Assembly: GCF_900289195.1 (NCBI RefSeq)
Contig: NZ_OMOH01000014.1
Location: 1-32,000, forward strand
From: Propionibacterium ruminifibrarum
GTDB taxonomy: Bacteria > Actinomycetota > Actinomycetes > Propionibacteriales > Propionibacteriaceae
Reading direction: 5' to 3'
DNA length: 32,000 bases
The position numbers were made by a program, and so were the translations under genes. A model generated the notes under the pieces. That model was given only the letters and a program-made list of their open reading frames with translations, had not been told where the DNA came from and did no database searches. Shown here one piece after another: positions 1-26,537 of this stretch. Within the stretch, counting starts at the first letter, position 1. Each line of letters opens with the position of its first letter.

Positions 1-1
1 G

Positions 2-286
2 ATCAGGGCCCTGGCCGACGGCGGCGAGATCACGGGCTGGCCTGCCGGCCGGTATGCCGAGGAACTCGCAGCGGCCGCCGGGACATGGCATGCCCGGGCA
101 TACCGGGACGGCCGACCCGGGGCGCTGTTCGGGGCAGTGAAAATGACCCGCCAGCCCCCCGAGATGAGATTCGTGTCCTACCACGACGCCCCACCCAACT
201 ACCTGGCCAGCGACTGGGAGGACGACATGTACTCAGGCGACGAAGATGTGCTGAGAACCGAACTAACCCGAATCTTCAAAGGTTGA
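2..286 (+). CDS. 3' end of a hypothetical protein, 5'-truncated by the window edge; possibly the immunity protein of a toxin module lying upstream of the window
   Basis: Frame 2 is open from the window edge to TGA at 284-286 (...RFVSYHDAPPNYLASDWEDDMYSGDEDVLRTELTRIFKG*). Third positions are GC-rich. It is absent from the ORF track because it has no start codon inside the window. Its C-terminal stretch loosely resembles aa ~80-140 of the 1653-2621 protein (PG.GA ... P.[YW]LAS). Confidence 0.45.
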   Translation: MRALADGGEITGWPAGRYAEELAAAAGTWHARAYRDGRPGALFGAVKMTRQPPEMRFVSYHDAPPNYLASDWEDDMYSGDEDVLRTELTRIFKG

Positions 287-330
287 AACCCAGACCCAGC
301 CTTGGGCTCAGTTGTCTTCCCTGATCTCCT

Positions 331-636
331 GTGGGACAGGAAGCGAGGTCACGGGTAAAGGATGTGCTCTCCCACCACGAGGCCCTGCACGGCCCCGACC
401 GGGTCATCGGCGGCAACCCCGACAACTTCACTGGCTTCGGCACCGAAACCGTCCCCGGCAACACCGCCAACTCAGAAATGGGCCGACACTGGTCAAATTC
501 CGATACCGTACGAAGCTATAATCGCCGCATGGAGGACGCAGTTTCTGATATTCCGGAAGAGTTGCGCGGTGATGTTCGGGTGAATACGGAGTTTCTGGTG
601 AATGGTAAGACGACTAATTTCATTGGCCTGCCGTGA
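331..636 (+). CDS. Orphan polymorphic-toxin C-terminal domain, Ntox15 (PF15604)/Tde-DNase-like with an HxxD motif; no delivery or N-terminal region, probably not independently translated
   Basis: The translation ...KDVLSHHEALHGPDRVIGGNPDNFTGFG...NTANSEMGRHW...DIPEELRGDVRVNTEF contains H-G-P-D (nt 388-399) followed by GG and an N.S.G..W segment. As I recall, this is the signature of the Ntox15/toxin_43 family. The frame opens only after an in-frame TGA at 322-324. The nominal start is GTG at 331 with no purine-rich SD upstream (gttgtcttccctgatctcct). It is followed 16 nt later by small putative immunity genes. Confidence 0.55.
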   Translation: MGQEARSRVKDVLSHHEALHGPDRVIGGNPDNFTGFGTETVPGNTANSEMGRHWSNSDTVRSYNRRMEDAVSDIPEELRGDVRVNTEFLVNGKTTNFIGLP

Positions 637-652
637 TGAAGGAAGAAATGAG

Positions 653-1122
653 ATGGCTGGTAAACGGGTGCGCGAGTCGTGGGAGAAGTACGGTCGGCGG
701 GGTCGAGAGGTTGAGGCATTCGTTGGGCTGATGGATTCAATGTCTCATGATCAATGGGTTACTGTTGGCGAGACTGAGAAGAATAACGTTTTTGATGAAT
801 ACATGGGTGCTCTTCAGGAATGCAAGAAGATAAGTATTTCCGCTACTGTTGTAAAGGCGTTGTCTTCTTTGGGTGATCGTTACCGGCCCCAGTATGATGA
901 TGAGGCTGTAGGTCGGTATACGCGTGGGGGGTCCGTGATGCGAAGTCCATTGCGCCGTATATCGTGGGTATTGCCGACCGGCTGCCTGCGTGGGCTGTTG
1001 AGGTGATTCTGCGTCCGTTCGTGAAGGCTGGTGTGGACCTGTCCCCGGTGTTGCCTGAGGGCATGGACATAAGCCGTCCGCTGCCGCACGTCGGTGATGA
1101 TGACTCGCCGGTTGATGAGTGA
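653..1122 (+). pseudogene. Frameshifted paralog of the 1122-1568 gene (putative immunity protein, unrecognised family)
   Basis: ATG at 653 follows a GGAAG SD. The protein aligns colinearly with the next gene (MAGKRVRESWEKYGRRGREVEAFVGLMDSMSHDQW vs MVGKRVREPWEKYGPRGCEVVAFVGLMDSMSHDQW) up to ...GRYTRGG. The homologous reading then continues in the -1 frame (VRDAKSIAPYIVGIADRLPAWAVEVILRPFVKAGVDLSPVLPEGMDISRPLP...) to TGA at 1120-1122. The copy-to-copy offset is 469 nt before and 470 nt after the G6 run at 926-931, which means a net 1-nt deletion in copy 1. Confidence 0.6.
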
Positions 1123-1568
1123 TGGTCGGTAAACGAGTGCGTGAACCGTGGGAGAAGTATGGTCCGCGGGGTTGTGAGGTCGTAGCGTTTGTCGGCTTGA
1201 TGGATTCCATGTCCCACGACCAGTGGGTCGTGGTCGGCGAGACAAAGGATGATCTTGATTTCGATGAGTATGCTTGGGCTCTTGAGCAGTGTCTGGAAAC
1301 AGGCATTTCTGCTACCACTGAAAGAATGTTGGTTGCACTGGGAGATTGTTACCAGCCCCAGTATGACGATGAGTCTGTTGGCCGGTACACTCGTGAAGGG
1401 GTCTGTTATGCGAAGTCCATTGCCCCATATATCGTGGGTATTGCTGACCGGTTGCCGGTGTGGGCGGTTGAGGTTCTCTTGCGTCCGTTCGTGAAGGCTG
1501 GTGTGGACTTGTCGTCGGTGTTGCCCGAGGGTATGGACATAAGCAGGCCGTTGCCGGATGAGGCGTAG
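1122..1568 (+). CDS. Hypothetical 148-aa protein, intact copy of the tandem pair; putative toxin-immunity protein of an unrecognised family
   Basis: ATG at 1122 overlaps the TGA of the restored upstream copy (TGATG), suggesting translational coupling. The frame is intact to TAG at 1566-1568. Its position directly downstream of a toxin tip is the only functional clue. I recognise no known motif. Confidence 0.6.
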   Translation: MVGKRVREPWEKYGPRGCEVVAFVGLMDSMSHDQWVVVGETKDDLDFDEYAWALEQCLETGISATTERMLVALGDCYQPQYDDESVGRYTREGVCYAKSIAPYIVGIADRLPVWAVEVLLRPFVKAGVDLSSVLPEGMDISRPLPDEA

Positions 1569-1652
1569 GCGCGGGTACTGGTCGTCAATGATGAGGATTG
1601 TCAAAAGGGACGAGGAGTACTTGGCTTCGGGCCGGGAGAGAGGTGTATCGGA

Positions 1653-2621
1653 ATGACTGTGCCGGGTTTTGGTCCTGATGCCAAGGAAGAGAAGATCAAG
1701 GCCCTGTACCAGAGGTTGGTCGGGTGGATGCGGGAGAACCGAGCCGATTACTTGCAGGCCGTGGTGCAGGCCGTGGGCGAGCGGCACGGCGGCTGGATCC
1801 GTTCGTACCACGACAATCGGCCCTACGACAATGTGGCACCGGCCGAGCTGTACGATCAGATGATCGCGCTGCGCAGCGTGCTGGCCGAGCCCGGCAGTGG
1901 CGCGTTCACCTACGCCAAGTTCGTCGTGGAGGTGGGGACCGGTACCCGTATGACGATGCGGCAGGACAGCCGCGAGCCCCAGCTGGATCCCCCCTACACG
2001 GCGCAGGACTGCGCCCGTGAACTGGAACTGTTCCCCCGTGATGATGGGCGCACCCCAACCTGGCTGGCCAGCCACGGGCAGCGCCGCGACGAGGTGACCA
2101 GCGTGAGGAAGATCGACGACCAGGTGCTGGAGCACTACCGGCCCCTCGTGCCCGAGGCGATCGGGGACCTGTGGAGCCAGTACGGCGTGGCCTATTTCGA
2201 TGACGGCATGGTGCGGCTGGTCGACCCGGCCCACGCCGTCAACCGGCTCCAGCGCGTGGCCCCTGCCGGCGACGACATGGTGCCGGTCTTCACCACGGCC
2301 CTGGGCGATGTCGTCTACTGGCGGGCCGGCCGGTTCGTGTTCTACGACTACCGGCACAGGACCTCCGGCGAGCTGGAGTCCAATGCTTTGGTGGCCCTGT
2401 ACATGCTGCACAGCGAGGATTTCCGCAACGAGTTCATGGACGGCCAGACCTACCGGCAGGTCGCCTGCCGGTACGGCATCCTCGACGTCGATGACTGCTT
2501 CGCCTACGTACCGCTCCTGCGGCTGGGCGGGCCCGAGGACGTGAACCGGCTCGACCCGTGCGAGATGTGGACGCACCTGGACTTCATCGCCCAGGCAACC
2601 GGCACGCCCAAAGAACCCTGA
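1653..2621 (+). CDS. Composite immunity-type protein: unknown N-terminal domain (aa ~1-145) fused to a GAD-like + DUF1851 (Tdi1-like) module (aa ~150-316)
   Basis: ATG at 1653 follows a GAGAGAGG SD. YRPLVPEAIGDLWSQYGVAYFDDGMVRLVDPAHAV fits my recollection of the GAD-like domain (PF08887). VPVFTTALGDVVYW...YRQVACRYGILDVDDCFAYVPLLRLGGPEDVNRLDPCEMWTHLDFI fits my recollection of DUF1851 / Tdi1 C-terminal (PF08906). Confidence 0.7.
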   Translation: MTVPGFGPDAKEEKIKALYQRLVGWMRENRADYLQAVVQAVGERHGGWIRSYHDNRPYDNVAPAELYDQMIALRSVLAEPGSGAFTYAKFVVEVGTGTRMTMRQDSREPQLDPPYTAQDCARELELFPRDDGRTPTWLASHGQRRDEVTSVRKIDDQVLEHYRPLVPEAIGDLWSQYGVAYFDDGMVRLVDPAHAVNRLQRVAPAGDDMVPVFTTALGDVVYWRAGRFVFYDYRHRTSGELESNALVALYMLHSEDFRNEFMDGQTYRQVACRYGILDVDDCFAYVPLLRLGGPEDVNRLDPCEMWTHLDFIAQATGTPKEP

Positions 2622-2644
2622 TACCGGCATCCGTCAGCTGCTCA

Positions 2645-4339
2645 TCACCGCGCCCACGGCCCCCGTCCGCCGAGCAGCGCCTTGCCCAGCGGCAGCAGCG
2701 AGAGCCCCATCAACGTCAGCCCCCACACCGGTTCGCTGCCGCGCAGCACGATGCCGCCGACGAGCATCCCGGCGAACACCACCGCGGCCACCGTCCGGTC
2801 CTGGCCCTGCTCGGCCCGGCGGATCTGCCTCACCGCGTCCGGGGTCTGCACGCTGAGCTGGCCCCGCTCGACCATCGTGAGCACCCGGTCGATGCGACGC
2901 GGCAGTCCGACGGCGAGGGAGGCCATCGACCTGGACTCCTCGAGCGCCACTCCCAGCTGCGAGCCGGGCGTGCCGGTCACGAGACTGCGGGCGTAGGGCT
3001 CCACCGAGTCCCACAGGTTGTACTCGGGGTACAGCTCCACGCACAGGCCGTTCATGAGCGAGGCCGCGCGGATGAGCAGCAGGAAGTTCTGCGGCAGCTG
3101 GAAGGGCATCGTGGCCATGAGATCGCGGAACTGCATGCCGAAGGCGACGAACTCCTTCGGGTCGACGGTGCGCATGTCCGCCAGGCTCATGCCGCCGAAA
3201 CGGTCGAAGAGCTGGCTCACCGCCCGCTCGATGAGCGCCAGATCGGCCGAGGGCAGCAGCATGTCGAGGTCCTGCATGCAGCCCAGCAGCCGGTGGCTGT
3301 CGCGCAGCCCCACCGCGACGACGACCTCCTTCAGCTCGTCACGCAGGTTGTCCGGCACCTGGCCCATCATCCCGAAGTCGACGAAGGTGAGCCGCCAGCT
3401 CCGTCCGGCCTCGGCGGCCTGTGCCCGGGGCAGGGGCGTGATGAACAGGTTGCCCGGGTGCGGGTCGGCGTGGAAGAAACCCAGGTTGAAGACCTGCTCG
3501 ATGTAGGCGTCGGCCACCGCGAAGGCCACCTCGCGCCGGTCGATGCCGGCCGCCTCGATCGCCTCGACGTCACTGATCTTGATCGCCGTCACGTCCGACA
3601 GGGTGAGCACCCGCGGCGAGGTGCGCTCCCACACGACGAGCGGGTAACCCACCTGCGGGGCGTCGGCGAAACTCTCGGCGAACCGCTCGGCGTTCCCCGC
3701 CTCGTTGAGGTAGTCGAGTTCCTCGGCCGTCGTGCGGGCGAACTCCTCGACGAGGGCGGGCATGTCCGCGCGCTCGGCGATCGGACGGTAGTGCGCGATC
3801 CAGCCGGCCGCCCGCCGCAGTGCCGCCAGGTCCACGTCGGTCACCTGCTCGATGCCGGGGCGCTGCACCTTCACGACCACGTCGCGGAAACCCACGTCGC
3901 GGGCCTCTGACCGCGTCAGCCGGGCCCGGTGGACCTGCCCCAGCGAGGCCGCCGCCAGCGGCTCGGGCTCGAAGTACTCGAAGGCCTCCGACAGGGGCAT
4001 GCCCAGCGCCGCCTCGGCCGCGGGGAGCACCTGCTCGTAGGGCACCGGCGGGGCCTCGTCCTGCAGCCCCGAGAGCTCGTCGGTGACGGTGGGCGGCAGC
4101 ACGTCCAGGCGGGTCGACATGAACTGGCCCACCTTGATCATGAGCCCGCCCAAGTCGGCGGCGAGATCGTGGAACCCCACCGCCGCCTTGCGCAGCCGTC
4201 GTTCCCGGCCCCGCTCGGACAGCCGGTGAAGGCCGAGGCGCGGCAGCACGGCGTCGAAGAACCACAGCTGCGCGATGAGCCGGGCGAAGAAGCCCAGGAT
4301 CCTCCGGTAGCGGGCTCGAAGATGTCTGCTGCCGCTCAT
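2645..4339 (-). CDS. ABC1/AarF/UbiB-family atypical protein kinase with C-terminal membrane segments
   Basis: 564 aa, GGAGG SD before ATG at 4339. The N-terminal ...LGGLMIKVGQFMSTRLDVLPPTVTDELSGLQDEAPP... and the ...FFHADPHPGNLF... motif are typical of the ABC1 family. Confidence 0.9.
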   Translation of the reverse strand: MSGSRHLRARYRRILGFFARLIAQLWFFDAVLPRLGLHRLSERGRERRLRKAAVGFHDLAADLGGLMIKVGQFMSTRLDVLPPTVTDELSGLQDEAPPVPYEQVLPAAEAALGMPLSEAFEYFEPEPLAAASLGQVHRARLTRSEARDVGFRDVVVKVQRPGIEQVTDVDLAALRRAAGWIAHYRPIAERADMPALVEEFARTTAEELDYLNEAGNAERFAESFADAPQVGYPLVVWERTSPRVLTLSDVTAIKISDVEAIEAAGIDRREVAFAVADAYIEQVFNLGFFHADPHPGNLFITPLPRAQAAEAGRSWRLTFVDFGMMGQVPDNLRDELKEVVVAVGLRDSHRLLGCMQDLDMLLPSADLALIERAVSQLFDRFGGMSLADMRTVDPKEFVAFGMQFRDLMATMPFQLPQNFLLLIRAASLMNGLCVELYPEYNLWDSVEPYARSLVTGTPGSQLGVALEESRSMASLAVGLPRRIDRVLTMVERGQLSVQTPDAVRQIRRAEQGQDRTVAAVVFAGMLVGGIVLRGSEPVWGLTLMGLSLLPLGKALLGGRGPWAR

Positions 4340-7221: not shown

Positions 7222-8280
7222 TCACTTCTCCTCGGGGTTGGGTTTCAGAACGACCTTGAGCGCCTCTCCGGTGCGGGTCAGGTCGATTGCCTCGTTGATG
7301 TGGTTCAGGGGCAGGACGTGGGTGATGATCGCCTCGGCCGGGAACGCCGGGTCGATGGCGAGTTCGAAGGCGCGCTGCACCTGCATGCTGTTCGCGCCGT
7401 AGTGGCCGTAGATCCACAGGCTGTTGTAGTGCACGGTGTTCGAGTCGATCTCGGTCAGCGCCCCCTTGGGGACGCCGCCGAAGAAGACGACGGTGCCGCA
7501 CGGCCGGGTCATCGCCAGCGCCTGCTGCTGGCCGGCCGTCGTCGGGTTGGCCGAGATCGCCTTGTCGACGCCCAGCCCGCCGGTGAGCCGCCTGACCTCC
7601 TCGACGGGCTCGACCGTGCTCGAGTTGATGCGGTGGTCGATGTCGAAGGCCCCGGACTTGTCCAGGCGGTCCTGGGTCACGTCGATGAGGATGACCTTCG
7701 AGGCCCCGCGCATCCTCGACAGCACCGCCAGGAAGACGCCGATCGGACCGGCGCCGAGGATCGCCACGGTGTCCCCGAGCCTCACGTCGATGTTCTCGAC
7801 GCACGCGTAGGTGCTCGACAGGGGCTCGGCCAGGCTCGCCCGCACGGGGTCGACGCCGGCGGGCAGGGTGAAGGTTGCGCCGCGCTCCACCCGTTTGGCC
7901 GTGTAGGCGATGTACTGGGCGAAACCGCCCGGGCGGCTGGTGTAGGACTCGACGTCGGTGCAGTGCTCGTGGTGGCCGGCCCGGCAGTAGTCGCACTTCA
8001 GGCAGTGGGCCTCGGGGTAGACGTAGAGCCGCTGGCCCGGCTCGTAGGCGGTGACCCCGGGCGACACCTCGGCCACCGTGCCCACCACCTCGTGCCCGTA
8101 GATGTGGGGGTAGGCGCCCCTGCGGGAATCGGTCGTCAGGTTCCTGATGTCTGACCCGCACAGGCCGACGGCGTCAACCCGGAGGACGAACCCGCCGTCG
8201 GGGCACTGCGGCCTCGGCACCTGCTCGAACCTGATGTCGCCGGGACCGTGCATGACGGCCGCGTCCATCACGTCTGTCAT
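7222..8280 (-). CDS. Zn-dependent medium-chain alcohol/polyol(-phosphate) dehydrogenase
   Basis: Start chosen at ATG 8280 (MTDVMDAAVMHGPGDIRFEQVP...) with a GAGGAG SD. The ORF-track start at 8427 adds an Arg-rich, non-coding-looking extension. GLCGSDI, the GHE motif (YGHEVVG) and a Cys cluster (CLKCDYC) are MDR-family hallmarks. Confidence 0.9.
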   Translation of the reverse strand: MTDVMDAAVMHGPGDIRFEQVPRPQCPDGGFVLRVDAVGLCGSDIRNLTTDSRRGAYPHIYGHEVVGTVAEVSPGVTAYEPGQRLYVYPEAHCLKCDYCRAGHHEHCTDVESYTSRPGGFAQYIAYTAKRVERGATFTLPAGVDPVRASLAEPLSSTYACVENIDVRLGDTVAILGAGPIGVFLAVLSRMRGASKVILIDVTQDRLDKSGAFDIDHRINSSTVEPVEEVRRLTGGLGVDKAISANPTTAGQQQALAMTRPCGTVVFFGGVPKGALTEIDSNTVHYNSLWIYGHYGANSMQVQRAFELAIDPAFPAEAIITHVLPLNHINEAIDLTRTGEALKVVLKPNPEEK

Positions 8281-8482: not shown

Positions 8483-8535
8483 GTGTGCCGAGCAGACCGG
8501 GGGCGTTGCTACCGTGAGCCCGGGAGGTGTCACAG

Positions 8536-10455
8536 GTGATCCTTTTCTCCGAACGCCAGTCTCTTCTACTGGAATTGCTCAGCGAGCTCGATCACGTCAT
8601 CACCGGCCGTGAACTCGCCGATCTTCTCGGGGTGAGTGCACGGACATTGCGGTACGACATCTCCCGGACCAATGGAATGGCCAAGGCCGAGGTCATCGAG
8701 GCGACTCCCAAGGGATATCGCCTGAATCGTCCGGTTTATTACGACCTGGTCGCCAGGAACTCCGACCTGGGCACCGAGCTGGGGCACCAGGAACGGATTC
8801 TGCTGTACCTCTTCAACGCCCCGGTCACCGATGTCTACGACATCATGCGCGACTGCTATCTCAGCGAGTCCGTCACGCGGGCGGCACTGCAGCACCTCGT
8901 TCCGAAGGCGGCCGAGTACGGCCTGTCCCTCACGACCTCGGGGGCGCGTGTCGAGCTGTCCGGCGACGAACTCGATCTGCGGCGGCTGCTCGGCGAGCTC
9001 GTCCACAATGCGATGGACGTCGCCGTCGGGCGTACCGAGAAGATGAAGCGCTACCTGCCGGACGTCGAGTTGTCCGTGGTGGAGGCCGAGCTGCGCGCGG
9101 CCGTCGAGGAGACCCGCGCCGACATCAACGACATCCAGCTCTCCAACACCGTCGTCAGCCTCGCGATCTGCCTGCAACGCTTCGACCACCCACCGGCCGC
9201 GCCGCACGTGCCGCGCGCCAGCGGCACCGGGGCCGACGAACTGACCGGGCGGCTTCTCGCCAGGCTCGGGAGGGCCTACCCGGAAAGGACCTTCGCGCCA
9301 TCGGACCGCGAGTACGTGCGGGCCCTCCTCGGCCTCGCCCTCGACCATGGCGTGACATCTCCCGGCGGCCGGCCCGACGCCGAGGACAGCGGCGCGGCGG
9401 AAGCCATCCGGGCCTGCCTCGACGAGACCATCGGGCACTTCAACCTCGAGGTCGACTACGGGAAACTGTCCCGGAACATCTGCGACCACGTGCTGCGCCT
9501 GGTGGCCCGCCCCCGCAAGCTGCCCTACTTCCGCAACAACCTGCAGGAATCCCTGCGGGCCCGCTCGCCCTTCCTGTACGACGTGGCCGTCTACCTGGCC
9601 GACAGGCTGTCGAAGGCGCTGACCATCAACTTCTCCGACGACGAGATCGGCCTGCTCGTCATCTACCTGGGGCTGCACACCGAGCAGCCTCCAACCGACG
9701 AACGCGCCATTTCGGCGGTGGTGGTCTGCCCGCGCTACCACGCGCTCCAGGACTGGCTGCTGGCCGAGCTCGTCGAGAGATTCCCCGACCGGCTGCGGAT
9801 CGTCGACATCGTGGCGAGCAACCGGGAGGCCGACGCCATCGAGTGCGACCTGGTCATCACCACGACCGACGAGGCCCCCGGCGTGCACCCGAGCGTGCGG
9901 ATCAGTGCCGTGCTGTCGGAACTGGACTGCACAGCCGTCGACGCCGCGATCCTGCGCGAATTCTCCGCGAAGATGCGCACCCGCATGGCCGCCATCATGT
10001 CGAAATTCCTCGACCCCGGCCTGTTCTTCGTCGGCCCCTCCTTCCCGGACGCGACGAGCACGATCCATTTCCTGTCCGGCGCCCTGCGCGACAAGGGATA
10101 CGTCCCGGAGGAGTTCGAGGACAGCGTCCTGCTGCGCGAGACCTATTCCCCGACGGCCTTCGCGCGCAGATTCGCGCTGCCGCACTCCATGGATTTCATG
10201 GCGCACGAGACGAAGGTCGCCGTGCTCATCCCGTCCTCGCCCATACCGTGGGAGACGGCCGATGTCAGCCTTGTCTTCATGCTCGCCATCAACGGTGCCG
10301 ATTACGACGAATTCATCCAGTTCTATCAGCCACTCATCAGCCTCCTCTACGATCCGCGGCTCTTCTCGGAGCTGAAAAGGGTCACCGATTTCGAGGCCTT
10401 CGCGCAATTGCTGGGCAGCCAACTCGTTGCCCCCAACAGGGATCAGCTGGGCTGA
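8536..10455 (+). CDS. PRD-domain PTS regulator (MtlR/LicR/BglG-family activator with an N-terminal HTH and a C-terminal EIIA-like domain)
   Basis: HTH region ...ITGRELADLLGVSARTLRYDI..., central PRD-like repeats, and a C-terminal ...PHSMDFMAHETKVAVLIPSSPIPW... EIIA-2-like segment. GTG at 8536 lies 8 nt after the GGGAGG SD; GTG at 8527 (ORF track) is an alternative start. Confidence 0.85.
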   Translation: MILFSERQSLLLELLSELDHVITGRELADLLGVSARTLRYDISRTNGMAKAEVIEATPKGYRLNRPVYYDLVARNSDLGTELGHQERILLYLFNAPVTDVYDIMRDCYLSESVTRAALQHLVPKAAEYGLSLTTSGARVELSGDELDLRRLLGELVHNAMDVAVGRTEKMKRYLPDVELSVVEAELRAAVEETRADINDIQLSNTVVSLAICLQRFDHPPAAPHVPRASGTGADELTGRLLARLGRAYPERTFAPSDREYVRALLGLALDHGVTSPGGRPDAEDSGAAEAIRACLDETIGHFNLEVDYGKLSRNICDHVLRLVARPRKLPYFRNNLQESLRARSPFLYDVAVYLADRLSKALTINFSDDEIGLLVIYLGLHTEQPPTDERAISAVVVCPRYHALQDWLLAELVERFPDRLRIVDIVASNREADAIECDLVITTTDEAPGVHPSVRISAVLSELDCTAVDAAILREFSAKMRTRMAAIMSKFLDPGLFFVGPSFPDATSTIHFLSGALRDKGYVPEEFEDSVLLRETYSPTAFARRFALPHSMDFMAHETKVAVLIPSSPIPWETADVSLVFMLAINGADYDEFIQFYQPLISLLYDPRLFSELKRVTDFEAFAQLLGSQLVAPNRDQLG

Positions 10456-26439: not shown

Positions 26440-26459
26440 GAGCCACCACACCTTTCCAC

Positions 26460-26537
26460 GGGCAGGAACGTGCCCGACGATCCGTAGTAGAGCAGGACGA
26501 AGGACGTCTTCGTCCGCACCCGTATTCTCGCATACGG
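26460..26537 (-). promoter_or_regulatory. Three consecutive stem-loops in the msiK 5' leader (candidate msiK RNA motif)
   Basis: GGGCA/TGCCC (26460-26475), a perfect 8-bp GGACGAAG/CTTCGTCC (26495-26515) and CCGTAT/ATACGG (26520-26537), all within 100 nt upstream of the msiK start on its strand. Confidence 0.35.

Follow-up and report, generated by a model that had tools for sequence, protein, structure and literature searches.

A 5′-truncated Ntox15 (Tde-type) DNase domain upstream of immunity-type genes in Propionibacterium ruminifibrarum

The DNases of the Tde type carry the Ntox15 domain (PF15604), for which the roles of two overlapping motifs, HxxD and PD(X)3GG, have been described (PMC10470768, PMC13556189). 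The PD(X)3GG loop is 100% conserved and packs extensively on helices alpha1-alpha2 (PMC13556189), while DNA is bound by helices 4, 6 and 7 (PMC10470768). Their immunity proteins (Tdi) insert into the Ntox15 core and displace the active-site loop PD(X)3GG with a P(Phi)4GG motif of their own (PMC10470768, PMC13556189), and orphan tdi genes are reported to be about 10-fold commoner than tde/tdi pairs (PMC13556189). For Actinobacteria, Ntox15 combined with T7SS-type heads was already listed in 2012 (Table 2 of Zhang et al., PMC3482391), and polymorphic toxins linked to ESX loci have been documented in prophages of Mycobacterium (PMC10654092).

We analysed a 32,000-nucleotide stretch of the Propionibacterium ruminifibrarum genome, referred to below as the window, which contains a short plus-strand frame related to these toxins close to its left end. 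In our reading, to which we assign a probability of roughly 0.7, this piece (325–636) would be a 5′-truncated, non-translated, dead-end toxin remnant which persists only by adjoining retained immunity genes. Frame 1 of the plus strand reads ...SCLP*SPVGQEARSRVKDVLSHHEALHGPDRVIGG...GLP*, with one TGA directly upstream (322–324) and the closing TGA at 634–636. After the upstream TGA the frame continues as SPVGQEARSRVKDVLSHHEALHGPDRVIGGNPDNFTGFG...NGKTTNFIGLP and stays open from 325 to 636, giving 103 codons plus the stop with neither an internal stop nor a frameshift, and the mechanical ORF listing gives 331–636 with 101 aa from a GTG. A frame right after the in-frame TGA at 322–324, with a GTG start at 331 and 101 codons, is what an earlier sequence-only reading of this DNA had described, and these coordinates were borne out.

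The same reading had proposed an Ntox15/Tde-type identity for the frame, and the profile search agrees with it, as the 103 residues match Pfam Ntox15 (PF15604) with 26.5 bits (E = 7.6e-6) and thus exceed the gathering score of 22.5. In a search of the fragment against NCBIfam no family matched. An HNH/EndoVII SHH-type nuclease, which had been offered as the alternative, is rejected, since no HNH-type family matched the fragment in Pfam even at E ≤ 1 and none matched in NCBIfam. Seven database proteins and toxins from Propionibacterium genomes are 77–89% identical to the fragment in amino acid sequence, a resemblance which, judged from the sequences, is far above chance. HGPD is encoded at 388–399 and PDRVIGG at 394–414, and together they form the active-site motif HGPDRVIGG (388–414, plus strand), in which HxxD overlaps PD(X)3GG. 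A close homologue of the fragment (P0001) aligns to the solved toxin domain of Tde1 from Phocaeicola vulgatus (8fzz_A, E = 1.5e-4) and its HGPDRVIGG falls on the catalytic HNPDQIAGG. The HxxD motif predicted at 388–399 is therefore not only present but also lines up with the catalytic HNPD of a characterized Tde1.

The domain is nevertheless truncated, as the fragment fills only positions 78–138 of the 153 positions of the PF15604 profile, in contrast to intact relatives such as the L001 toxin, which span positions 8–150. On the 1129-aa toxin of P. australiense the fragment corresponds to approximately residues 1029–1129, and a tblastn search with this toxin (L014) placed its residues 1032–1129 at 340–633 of the window with 84% identity. 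The P. australiense protein has HEALHGPD at residue 1044 and its nuclease domain begins at about residue 972–976; missing from 325–636 are about 55–60 N-terminal residues of the nuclease domain and the carrier of about 970 residues. The earlier word cassette had to be given up, insofar as it implies an entire toxin tip that is ready for use, on account of these two missing parts. When the DNA was aligned with orphan copies and with the main toxin genes of five loci, good homology began at about nt 340, and DNA and protein comparisons with six toxin genes together put the onset at about nt 325–345. At the protein level it plausibly begins at nt 325–328 (PVGQ, as in P0001), that is, the onset lies at or just past the TGA at 322–324, and before about nt 325 none of the three frames contains toxin-like sequence. 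Through the alignment of P0001 with 8fzz_A, the first toxin residue of the window was located at the start of the helix leading into the active site. Judged from the profile coverage, the fragment is without the N-terminal helices alpha1-alpha2 that pack on the active-site loop, and it is therefore unlikely to fold on its own into an active nuclease. Since AF2 of the whole toxin domain (P0001, 8-sequence alignment) gave a pLDDT of 42.6, too poor for a fold search, the extent of the truncation was read from the HMM match and from the alignment to 8fzz_A.

Downstream of the fragment and on the same strand follow two copies of a family of about 150 aa and a Tdi-type gene. Copy 1 (653–1122) is broken only by a shortfall of one base in a run of six G (926–931). 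Adding one G yields a product of 156 aa that is identical in 156/156 positions to P0012 of an independent assembly, so that the apparent frameshift, a difference in the length of the G run, may be a sequencing error. Copy 2 (1119–1568, plus strand) is intact, encodes 149 aa and is 77% identical to copy 1. The family is known only from Propionibacterium-type loci, always in 2–4 tandem copies between the toxin and the Tdi-like gene, and gave only 11 matches at E ≤ 1e-3 among 1.84 billion representatives. AF2 produced a confident all-alpha model of the protein (pLDDT 88.7), for which Foldseek found nothing in the PDB at E ≤ 0.001, and Pfam found nothing on remote relatives of the family. We regard it as a candidate for a second, putative immunity to the Ntox15 toxin.

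The Tdi-type immunity gene (1653–2621, plus strand) encodes 322 aa with an N-terminal extension of about 150 aa followed by the GAD-like and DUF1851/T6SS_Tdi1_C domains (PF08887, E = 1.2e-6; PF08906, E = 2.3e-11). Residues 153–314 align to residues 17–186 of the Tdi1 chain 8fzz_B (E = 1e-13), which covers almost the whole solved chain, and the protein also matches 8g0k_B (E = 1.7e-7). A counterpart of the P(Phi)4GG motif is found in PLLRLGG (2511–2531, plus strand), which has one Arg among the four positions and aligns with PTLSMGG of 8fzz_B and PALVAGG of 8g0k_B. The GAD-like + DUF1851 gene expected about 1 kb downstream of the fragment is thus confirmed by Pfam as well as by the alignment to 8fzz_B. 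The toxin remnant and the Tdi-type gene are not adjacent, the two genes of about 150 aa (653–1568) standing between them as in all intact relatives, and past the Tdi-type gene the ABC1 and PadR genes are located on the minus strand.

To the right of the toxin, the same neighbourhood, consisting of the genes of about 150 aa, the Tdi-like gene of 322 aa, ABC1(−), PadR(−) and further sugar-metabolism genes, recurs in P. australiense (L014 and three other contigs), in P. acidifaciens (L004 and L002) and in L011–L013 and L017, and the window is 81–86% identical at the DNA level to this right-hand part of its relatives from about nt 358 rightward. Wherever such a locus extends sufficiently to the left, it holds a full toxin gene of 1129–1148 aa. 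The common layout is EccD, ESAT6-like, DUF6177, DUF6507, full toxin, 2–4 genes of about 150 aa, Tdi-like gene of 322 aa, ABC1(−) and PadR(−), and it was found in four loci from MAGs or metagenomes (L011, L012, L013, L017), in the complete P. australiense genome (L014) and in P. acidifaciens (L004). On their 5′ side the intact toxins have DUF6507, a gene of 109 aa, DUF6177 and the ESAT-6-like gene, with EccD a few kb further on the other strand. The profiles linking the relatives to ESX are EccD, the ESAT6-like PF28026 and NF035935, the latter with 78.7 bits and thus below its cut-off of 100. With EccD and ESAT-6-like genes beside them, the intact toxins are most plausibly exported by an ESX/type VII system, a route deduced from gene context.

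None of the secretion-domain models of Pfam and NCBIfam matched the N-terminal 400 or so residues of the relatives, no WXG/LXG/LDxD-type secretion domain is present in the window, and no PAAR/VgrG-type head was found on the intact relatives. The expectation that no T6SS-type carrier would be involved agrees with the last observation and with the EccD and ESAT6-like genes next to the relatives. That a different delivery route has to exist was likewise correct, but as an inference it was not new, given the T7SS heads in the 2012 table (Zhang et al., PMC3482391). A plasmid or phage origin of the module was also considered and rejected, as tblastn gave no match to a plasmid or phage copy and the locus is chromosomal.

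Turnover of the toxin genes is common in these loci. Orphans that contain the whole domain were found in L001, L002, L005–L008 and L019–L023, with starts at residue ~956 or at VQER in L001, L005 and L019–L023; the oral-metagenome contigs among these (L019–L023) combine a main gene with one or two whole-domain orphans from residue ~956. In L001 the order is main Ntox15 toxin, genes of about 150 aa, Tdi, ankyrin-repeat gene, Imm33-domain gene, small ORFs, orphan Ntox15 and two genes of about 150 aa. The orphan in L005 is fused behind the first codons of a gene of about 150 aa, and degenerate versions of this type occur in L002, L006–L008 and L026. In L018 the toxin has been cut independently, at residue 1040, and the DNA upstream of the cut is unrelated. 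The main toxin itself is inactivated in L004, where it is split over two reading frames, and in L010, where an in-frame TAG lies three codons ahead of GVPADQ. The fragment at 325–636 is a further product of this active gain and loss of toxins and has been cut more severely than most.

Within the frame itself we could detect no positive sign of decay, a sequence-based result which would fit a recent truncation and continued constraint alike. Over 86 codons, and hence with little statistical power, dN/dS was 0.16–0.27 for the fragment against intact toxins and 0.13–0.29 among intact toxins, and the five private substitutions of the fragment (three synonymous, two non-synonymous) are too few sites to decide. 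The modules are, however, unevenly conserved along their length. Among 19 modules the amino acid divergence was 0.058 in the catalytic block, which is near-invariant at the DNA level, and four times higher in the last 46 residues (0.244) and in the first gene of about 150 aa (0.20). L011 and L017 are 96% identical 300–900 nt upstream but only 78–80% identical over the tail and over the first immunity gene, and GC3 falls from 0.82 to 0.53 right past the block in the fragment as well as in intact toxins. The tail also covaries more strongly with the first gene of about 150 aa (r = 0.65) than the catalytic block does (0.39), which is no more than suggestive, given that the modules are not phylogenetically independent of each other and that one tail type occurs with different first genes.

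Together with the intact frame and with the fact that both truncated orphans (the window and L018) begin no more than about 35 nt upstream of the block, the differences in divergence and in GC3 lend some weight to the strongest of the alternatives, in which the piece would be a recombination cassette below the domain level. The catalytic block would then serve as a homology patch through which the tail and the array of genes of about 150 aa are swapped into a resident or incoming ESX toxin gene of full length, so that the specificity-determining tail (last ~45 codons) moves with its immunity genes. We consider this unlikely. Most orphans contain the whole domain from residue 956, and a cut directly ahead of the block is thus not typical, and two cases are too few for a hotspot; the codon bias of a high-GC genome can alone account for the DNA conservation of the block. 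Moreover, this genome offers no main toxin gene as the recombination partner in the sequence available, none of the loci compared showed a main gene recombined with an orphan tail, and the cassette role is without direct support. Hardly more credible, and if anything a shade less so, is the general form of the idea, namely that the ESX-linked Ntox15 toxins of Propionibacterium diversify below the domain level with the HEALHGPDRVIGGNPDNFTGFG...GRHWS block as crossover, and that truncated tips (325–636, L018) are usable cassettes with a two-tier immunity. If it were true, a polymorphic tail of about 45 residues would travel with a private, structurally novel immunity family of about 150 aa and the generic Tdi would cover the conserved core, resulting in two tiers of immunity for one nuclease. 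After weighing the polymorphism against the evidence from whole-domain orphans, we place the dead-end remnant first and the cassette second.

Upstream of the fragment lies the 3′ end of a gene of the Imm33-containing family (2–286, plus strand, frame 2), which runs off the window start and comprises 94 codons and a TGA. Its peptide matches 'PROPJV5_2434, partial' from a P. ruminifibrarum contig of 49,487 nt with 100% identity, and the window start is therefore the contig end, 330 nt upstream of the ORF start at 331. Beyond this end no sequence was recovered by protein look-ups, by a scan of genome contigs, which returned other species only, or by a metagenome scan with the upstream peptide. 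The peptide shows 52.7% identity over 93 aa to positions 7962–8240 of L001, the C-terminal part of a gene (7434–8249, 271 aa) that has Imm33 (PF09951, E = 1.5e-16) at its N-terminus and is located between the main Ntox15 module and the orphan one. Pfam gave no match on the part of the upstream gene inside the window, and the homology to the L001 protein extends through to the stop codon of the upstream gene. Between this gene and the toxin remnant lies a spacer (287–324) that ends in the TGA at 322–324, in frame with the remnant. It resembles neither toxin genes nor what follows the Imm33-type gene elsewhere, and blastn-short against all loci gathered returned chance 9–11-mers only.

A faint W...LT...G in frame 2 had made the upstream ORF a candidate for the missing half of the domain; as it is the end of an Imm33-family gene and BLASTP gave no alignment at E ≤ 100, the candidate was rejected. 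It had also been considered that the frame is simply the 3′ part of a larger gene interrupted by a sequencing error, and this scenario fails because the upstream ORF is unrelated, lies in another frame and has an Imm33-family homologue, and because no frame before about nt 325 is toxin-like. A broader version, in which 325–636 is the end of an intact full-length toxin gene and misassembly of a repeat-rich region at a contig end has produced the junction with the Imm33-type gene or the TGA, appears quite improbable. In its favour are the position at a contig end, the probable homopolymer error 600 nt downstream and a 256-nt contig (P0009) overlapping the first 36 codons of the 2–286 gene, which is typical of and suggests a collapsed repeat. 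However, the upstream ORF resembles the Imm33 protein right to its own stop, toxin homology is gone in all three frames instead of being shifted, the independent contig L001 also has an Imm33-type gene upstream of an orphan Ntox15, and no repeat common to both sides of the junction that could cause a chimeric join was found.

The claim that GTG 331 is the sole start of the frame could not be upheld, as GTG 364, ATG 478, ATG 529 and others follow in frame, yet it is the only start that opens the ORF and the accompanying claim of no credible start with a Shine-Dalgarno sequence (SD) stood. As had been noted from the letters alone, the sequence upstream of GTG 331 is rich in pyrimidines, with only 4 purines in 20 nt and no SD-like run, and none of the later starts has a usable SD; the AAGGA ahead of GTG 364 ends 1 nt from the start codon. 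A promoter and terminator scan of window positions 1–2700 gave nothing over the shuffle expectation. The gene callers behind the NCBI record left 325–636 uncalled. That a small protein is made from GTG 331 or 364 and has a separate role, such as that of a catalytically dead or weak C-terminal subdomain titrating immunity proteins or binding DNA, is the least probable of all readings, for although the frame is open, the sequence conserved, HxxD/PD(X)3GG intact and the domain split into two subdomains in Tde-Tdi complexes (PMC10470768), which makes the C-terminal half a unit of sorts, there is no SD at a workable spacing for either GTG, the active-site loop lacks its support from alpha1-alpha2, no P. 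ruminifibrarum protein is found among the database protein matches to the fragment and other strains have clearly degenerate versions (L006–L008, L026).

According to the dead-end remnant model, the fragment would derive from a polymorphic toxin associated with ESX/type VII genes and represent the final ~100 codons of its Ntox15 DNase domain. A rearrangement in P. ruminifibrarum would have removed the toxin sequence upstream of about nt 325 or shifted it elsewhere, either by a deletion or by an insertion of immunity/toxin material with the Imm33-family gene as its 3′ end, and the rest of the toxin would have been left joined 40 nt behind an unrelated gene. With no usable start and without the helices that hold the PD(X)3GG loop, the remnant is most likely neither translated nor toxic. 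The genes of about 150 aa and the Tdi-type gene are probably still working as orphan immunity, which would shield the cell when related strains attack with Ntox15 toxins, and the remnant may survive by its physical attachment to these immunity genes, perhaps by sharing their transcript. Of this model, the identity of the fragment, its truncation, the synteny and the intactness of the immunity genes were observed, while the lack of translation, the lack of toxicity and the protection of the cell are deduced.

T7SS-linked Ntox15 has been known from Actinobacteria since 2012. The piece at 325–636 is an ordinary by-product of toxin-gene turnover, and the fragment alone would be a footnote on toxin loss with immunity kept in a rumen propionibacterium. 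It is also a warning to annotators that an above-threshold HMM match such as this Ntox15 stub can be non-functional. Greater value lies in its surroundings, that is, in a conserved ESX-adjacent Ntox15 locus of Propionibacterium, in arrays of orphan modules and in a Tdi protein with an extra domain. The stronger leads are the narrow, confidently modelled and unclassifiable family of about 150 aa at the position expected for immunity, and possibly a polymorphism of the toxin tail below the domain level. If both gene families neutralise one DNase, the locus would add to the natural examples of dual immunity and offer a tractable Gram-positive, high-GC counterpart to the Tde/Tdi work in Bacteroidales and Bacillota.

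Among known systems the locus is most similar to Tde1/Tdi1 and Tde2/Tdi2 from A. tumefaciens, P. vulgatus (8FZZ, 8G0K) and Bacillota, with which it shares the Pfam family and the HxxD/PD(X)3GG motif. As in these pairs, a GAD-like + DUF1851 immunity gene with a P(Phi)4GG-type motif lies downstream on the same strand. In contrast to them, the window has only the C-terminal two-thirds of the toxin domain without carrier or start codon, 2–4 copies of the unrelated gene of about 150 aa, two of them in the window, lie between toxin and Tdi, and the Tdi-like protein has an extra N-terminal region of about 150 aa. Whereas Tde proteins of Agrobacterium and Bacteroidales are T6SS cargo, the intact relatives in Propionibacterium have about 1130 aa and lie beside ESX genes.

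Orphan cdiA-CT/cdiI and rhs-CT modules are displaced toxin-immunity modules. The locus resembles such orphan polymorphic-toxin modules in that a toxin C-terminus without delivery region is followed by immunity genes, in that relatives have the full gene and in that sister contigs hold one or two more modules, but classical orphans comprise the whole toxin domain and upstream homology and the copy in the window is cut inside the catalytic domain. The concept of 'standalone toxin cassettes' is stated by Zhang et al. 2012 (PMC3482391). As with actinobacterial ESX/T7SS toxins (WXG/LXG/LDxD heads; PEST cassettes, PMC10654092), the relatives follow ESAT-6-like, DUF6177 and DUF6507 genes near EccD; they differ from these toxins by an N-terminus that matches no secretion-domain model, and the window locus differs from the PEST cassettes of Mycobacterium prophages in being chromosomal and not part of a prophage or plasmid. 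Finally, the locus is similar to orphan tdi genes and to the acquired interbacterial defence islands of gut bacteria, in which immunity is kept without a working cognate toxin, with the difference that here a piece of the toxin is still attached and that the host is a rumen propionibacterium.

Between the Ntox15 DNase toxin and the Tdi-like immunity gene there are always two to four diverged tandem copies of a gene family encoding proteins of about 150 aa, located at 653–1122 and 1119–1568 in the window, at 8533–10450 in the metagenomic locus L011 and at 9031–10447 in the P. australiense locus L014. The family has no match in Pfam or NCBIfam, and a search of 1.84 billion representative proteins returned only 11 matches to it at E ≤ 1e-3. 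AF2 confidently predicts an all-alpha fold for the protein (pLDDT 88.7, pTM 0.84), and a fold search of the PDB with this model gave no match. We propose the family as a candidate for a novel immunity family. The apparent frameshift of the first copy in the window lies in a run of six Gs at 926–931. With seven Gs at this position the product is identical in 156 of 156 residues to P0012, a sequence from an independent Logan assembly, and the shortfall of one G probably reflects either a homopolymer error or slippage that occurred very recently.

Both copies are part of a low-GC island (window 450–1650; L014 8780–10520; L011 8320–10540; metagenomic locus L001 3580–4700), which shows a GC content of 0.43–0.60 compared to about 0.70 in the flanks and a strongly positive GC skew. 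Its 5' edge is found within the toxin gene just past the catalytic block, where GC3 drops from 0.82 to 0.53, and its 3' edge lies where the Tdi-like gene (GC3 0.89) begins. As the low-GC pattern is common to the intact relatives, the island is an old feature.

In P. acidifaciens-type sequences the full-length, ESX-adjacent main toxin gene is itself broken (L004 6868–10297; L010 2–1246). In strain DSM 21887 (L004) it is divided between two reading frames near 9290, and in the Logan contig L010 a CAG codon three codons 5' of GVPADQ is changed to TAG; the immunity genes are still present 3' of the broken toxin in both. Arrays consisting of one main toxin and one or two orphan Ntox15 modules, which are copies without the carrier region, were found in the ENA metagenome contigs L019–L023 as well as in L002 (861–1426), L005 and L006–L008. 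The orphans have a common 5' junction, in which a MAGGRV* remnant of the start of a ~150-aa gene is fused to ...VSREVVEGFDLSGAAES..., and the distal orphan is disrupted internally. The upstream context of the metagenome contig L009 was left out of the analysis because its first ~60 nt (1–60) resemble a Nextera transposase adapter (...AGATGTGTATAAGAGACAG-like).

The window opens at one terminus of a P. ruminifibrarum contig of 49,487 nt. P0009, a separate contig of 256 nt, overlaps the first 36 codons of the window's part of the Imm33-family gene (window 1–110) and reaches 49 codons beyond, which indicates a repeat-induced assembly break inside this gene. The sole Rfam match within the window is an msiK RNA motif (RF01747) at 26455–26491 on the minus strand, whose score of 45.6 bits exceeds the gathering score of 33.

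The Tdi-like protein carries an N-terminal extension of about 150 residues (window 1653–2100), for which no family match was obtained. The extension is kept in all relatives, where the protein has a size of 321–322 aa. In this the Propionibacterium protein differs from the solved Tdi proteins, which comprise about 200 aa and lack such an extension.
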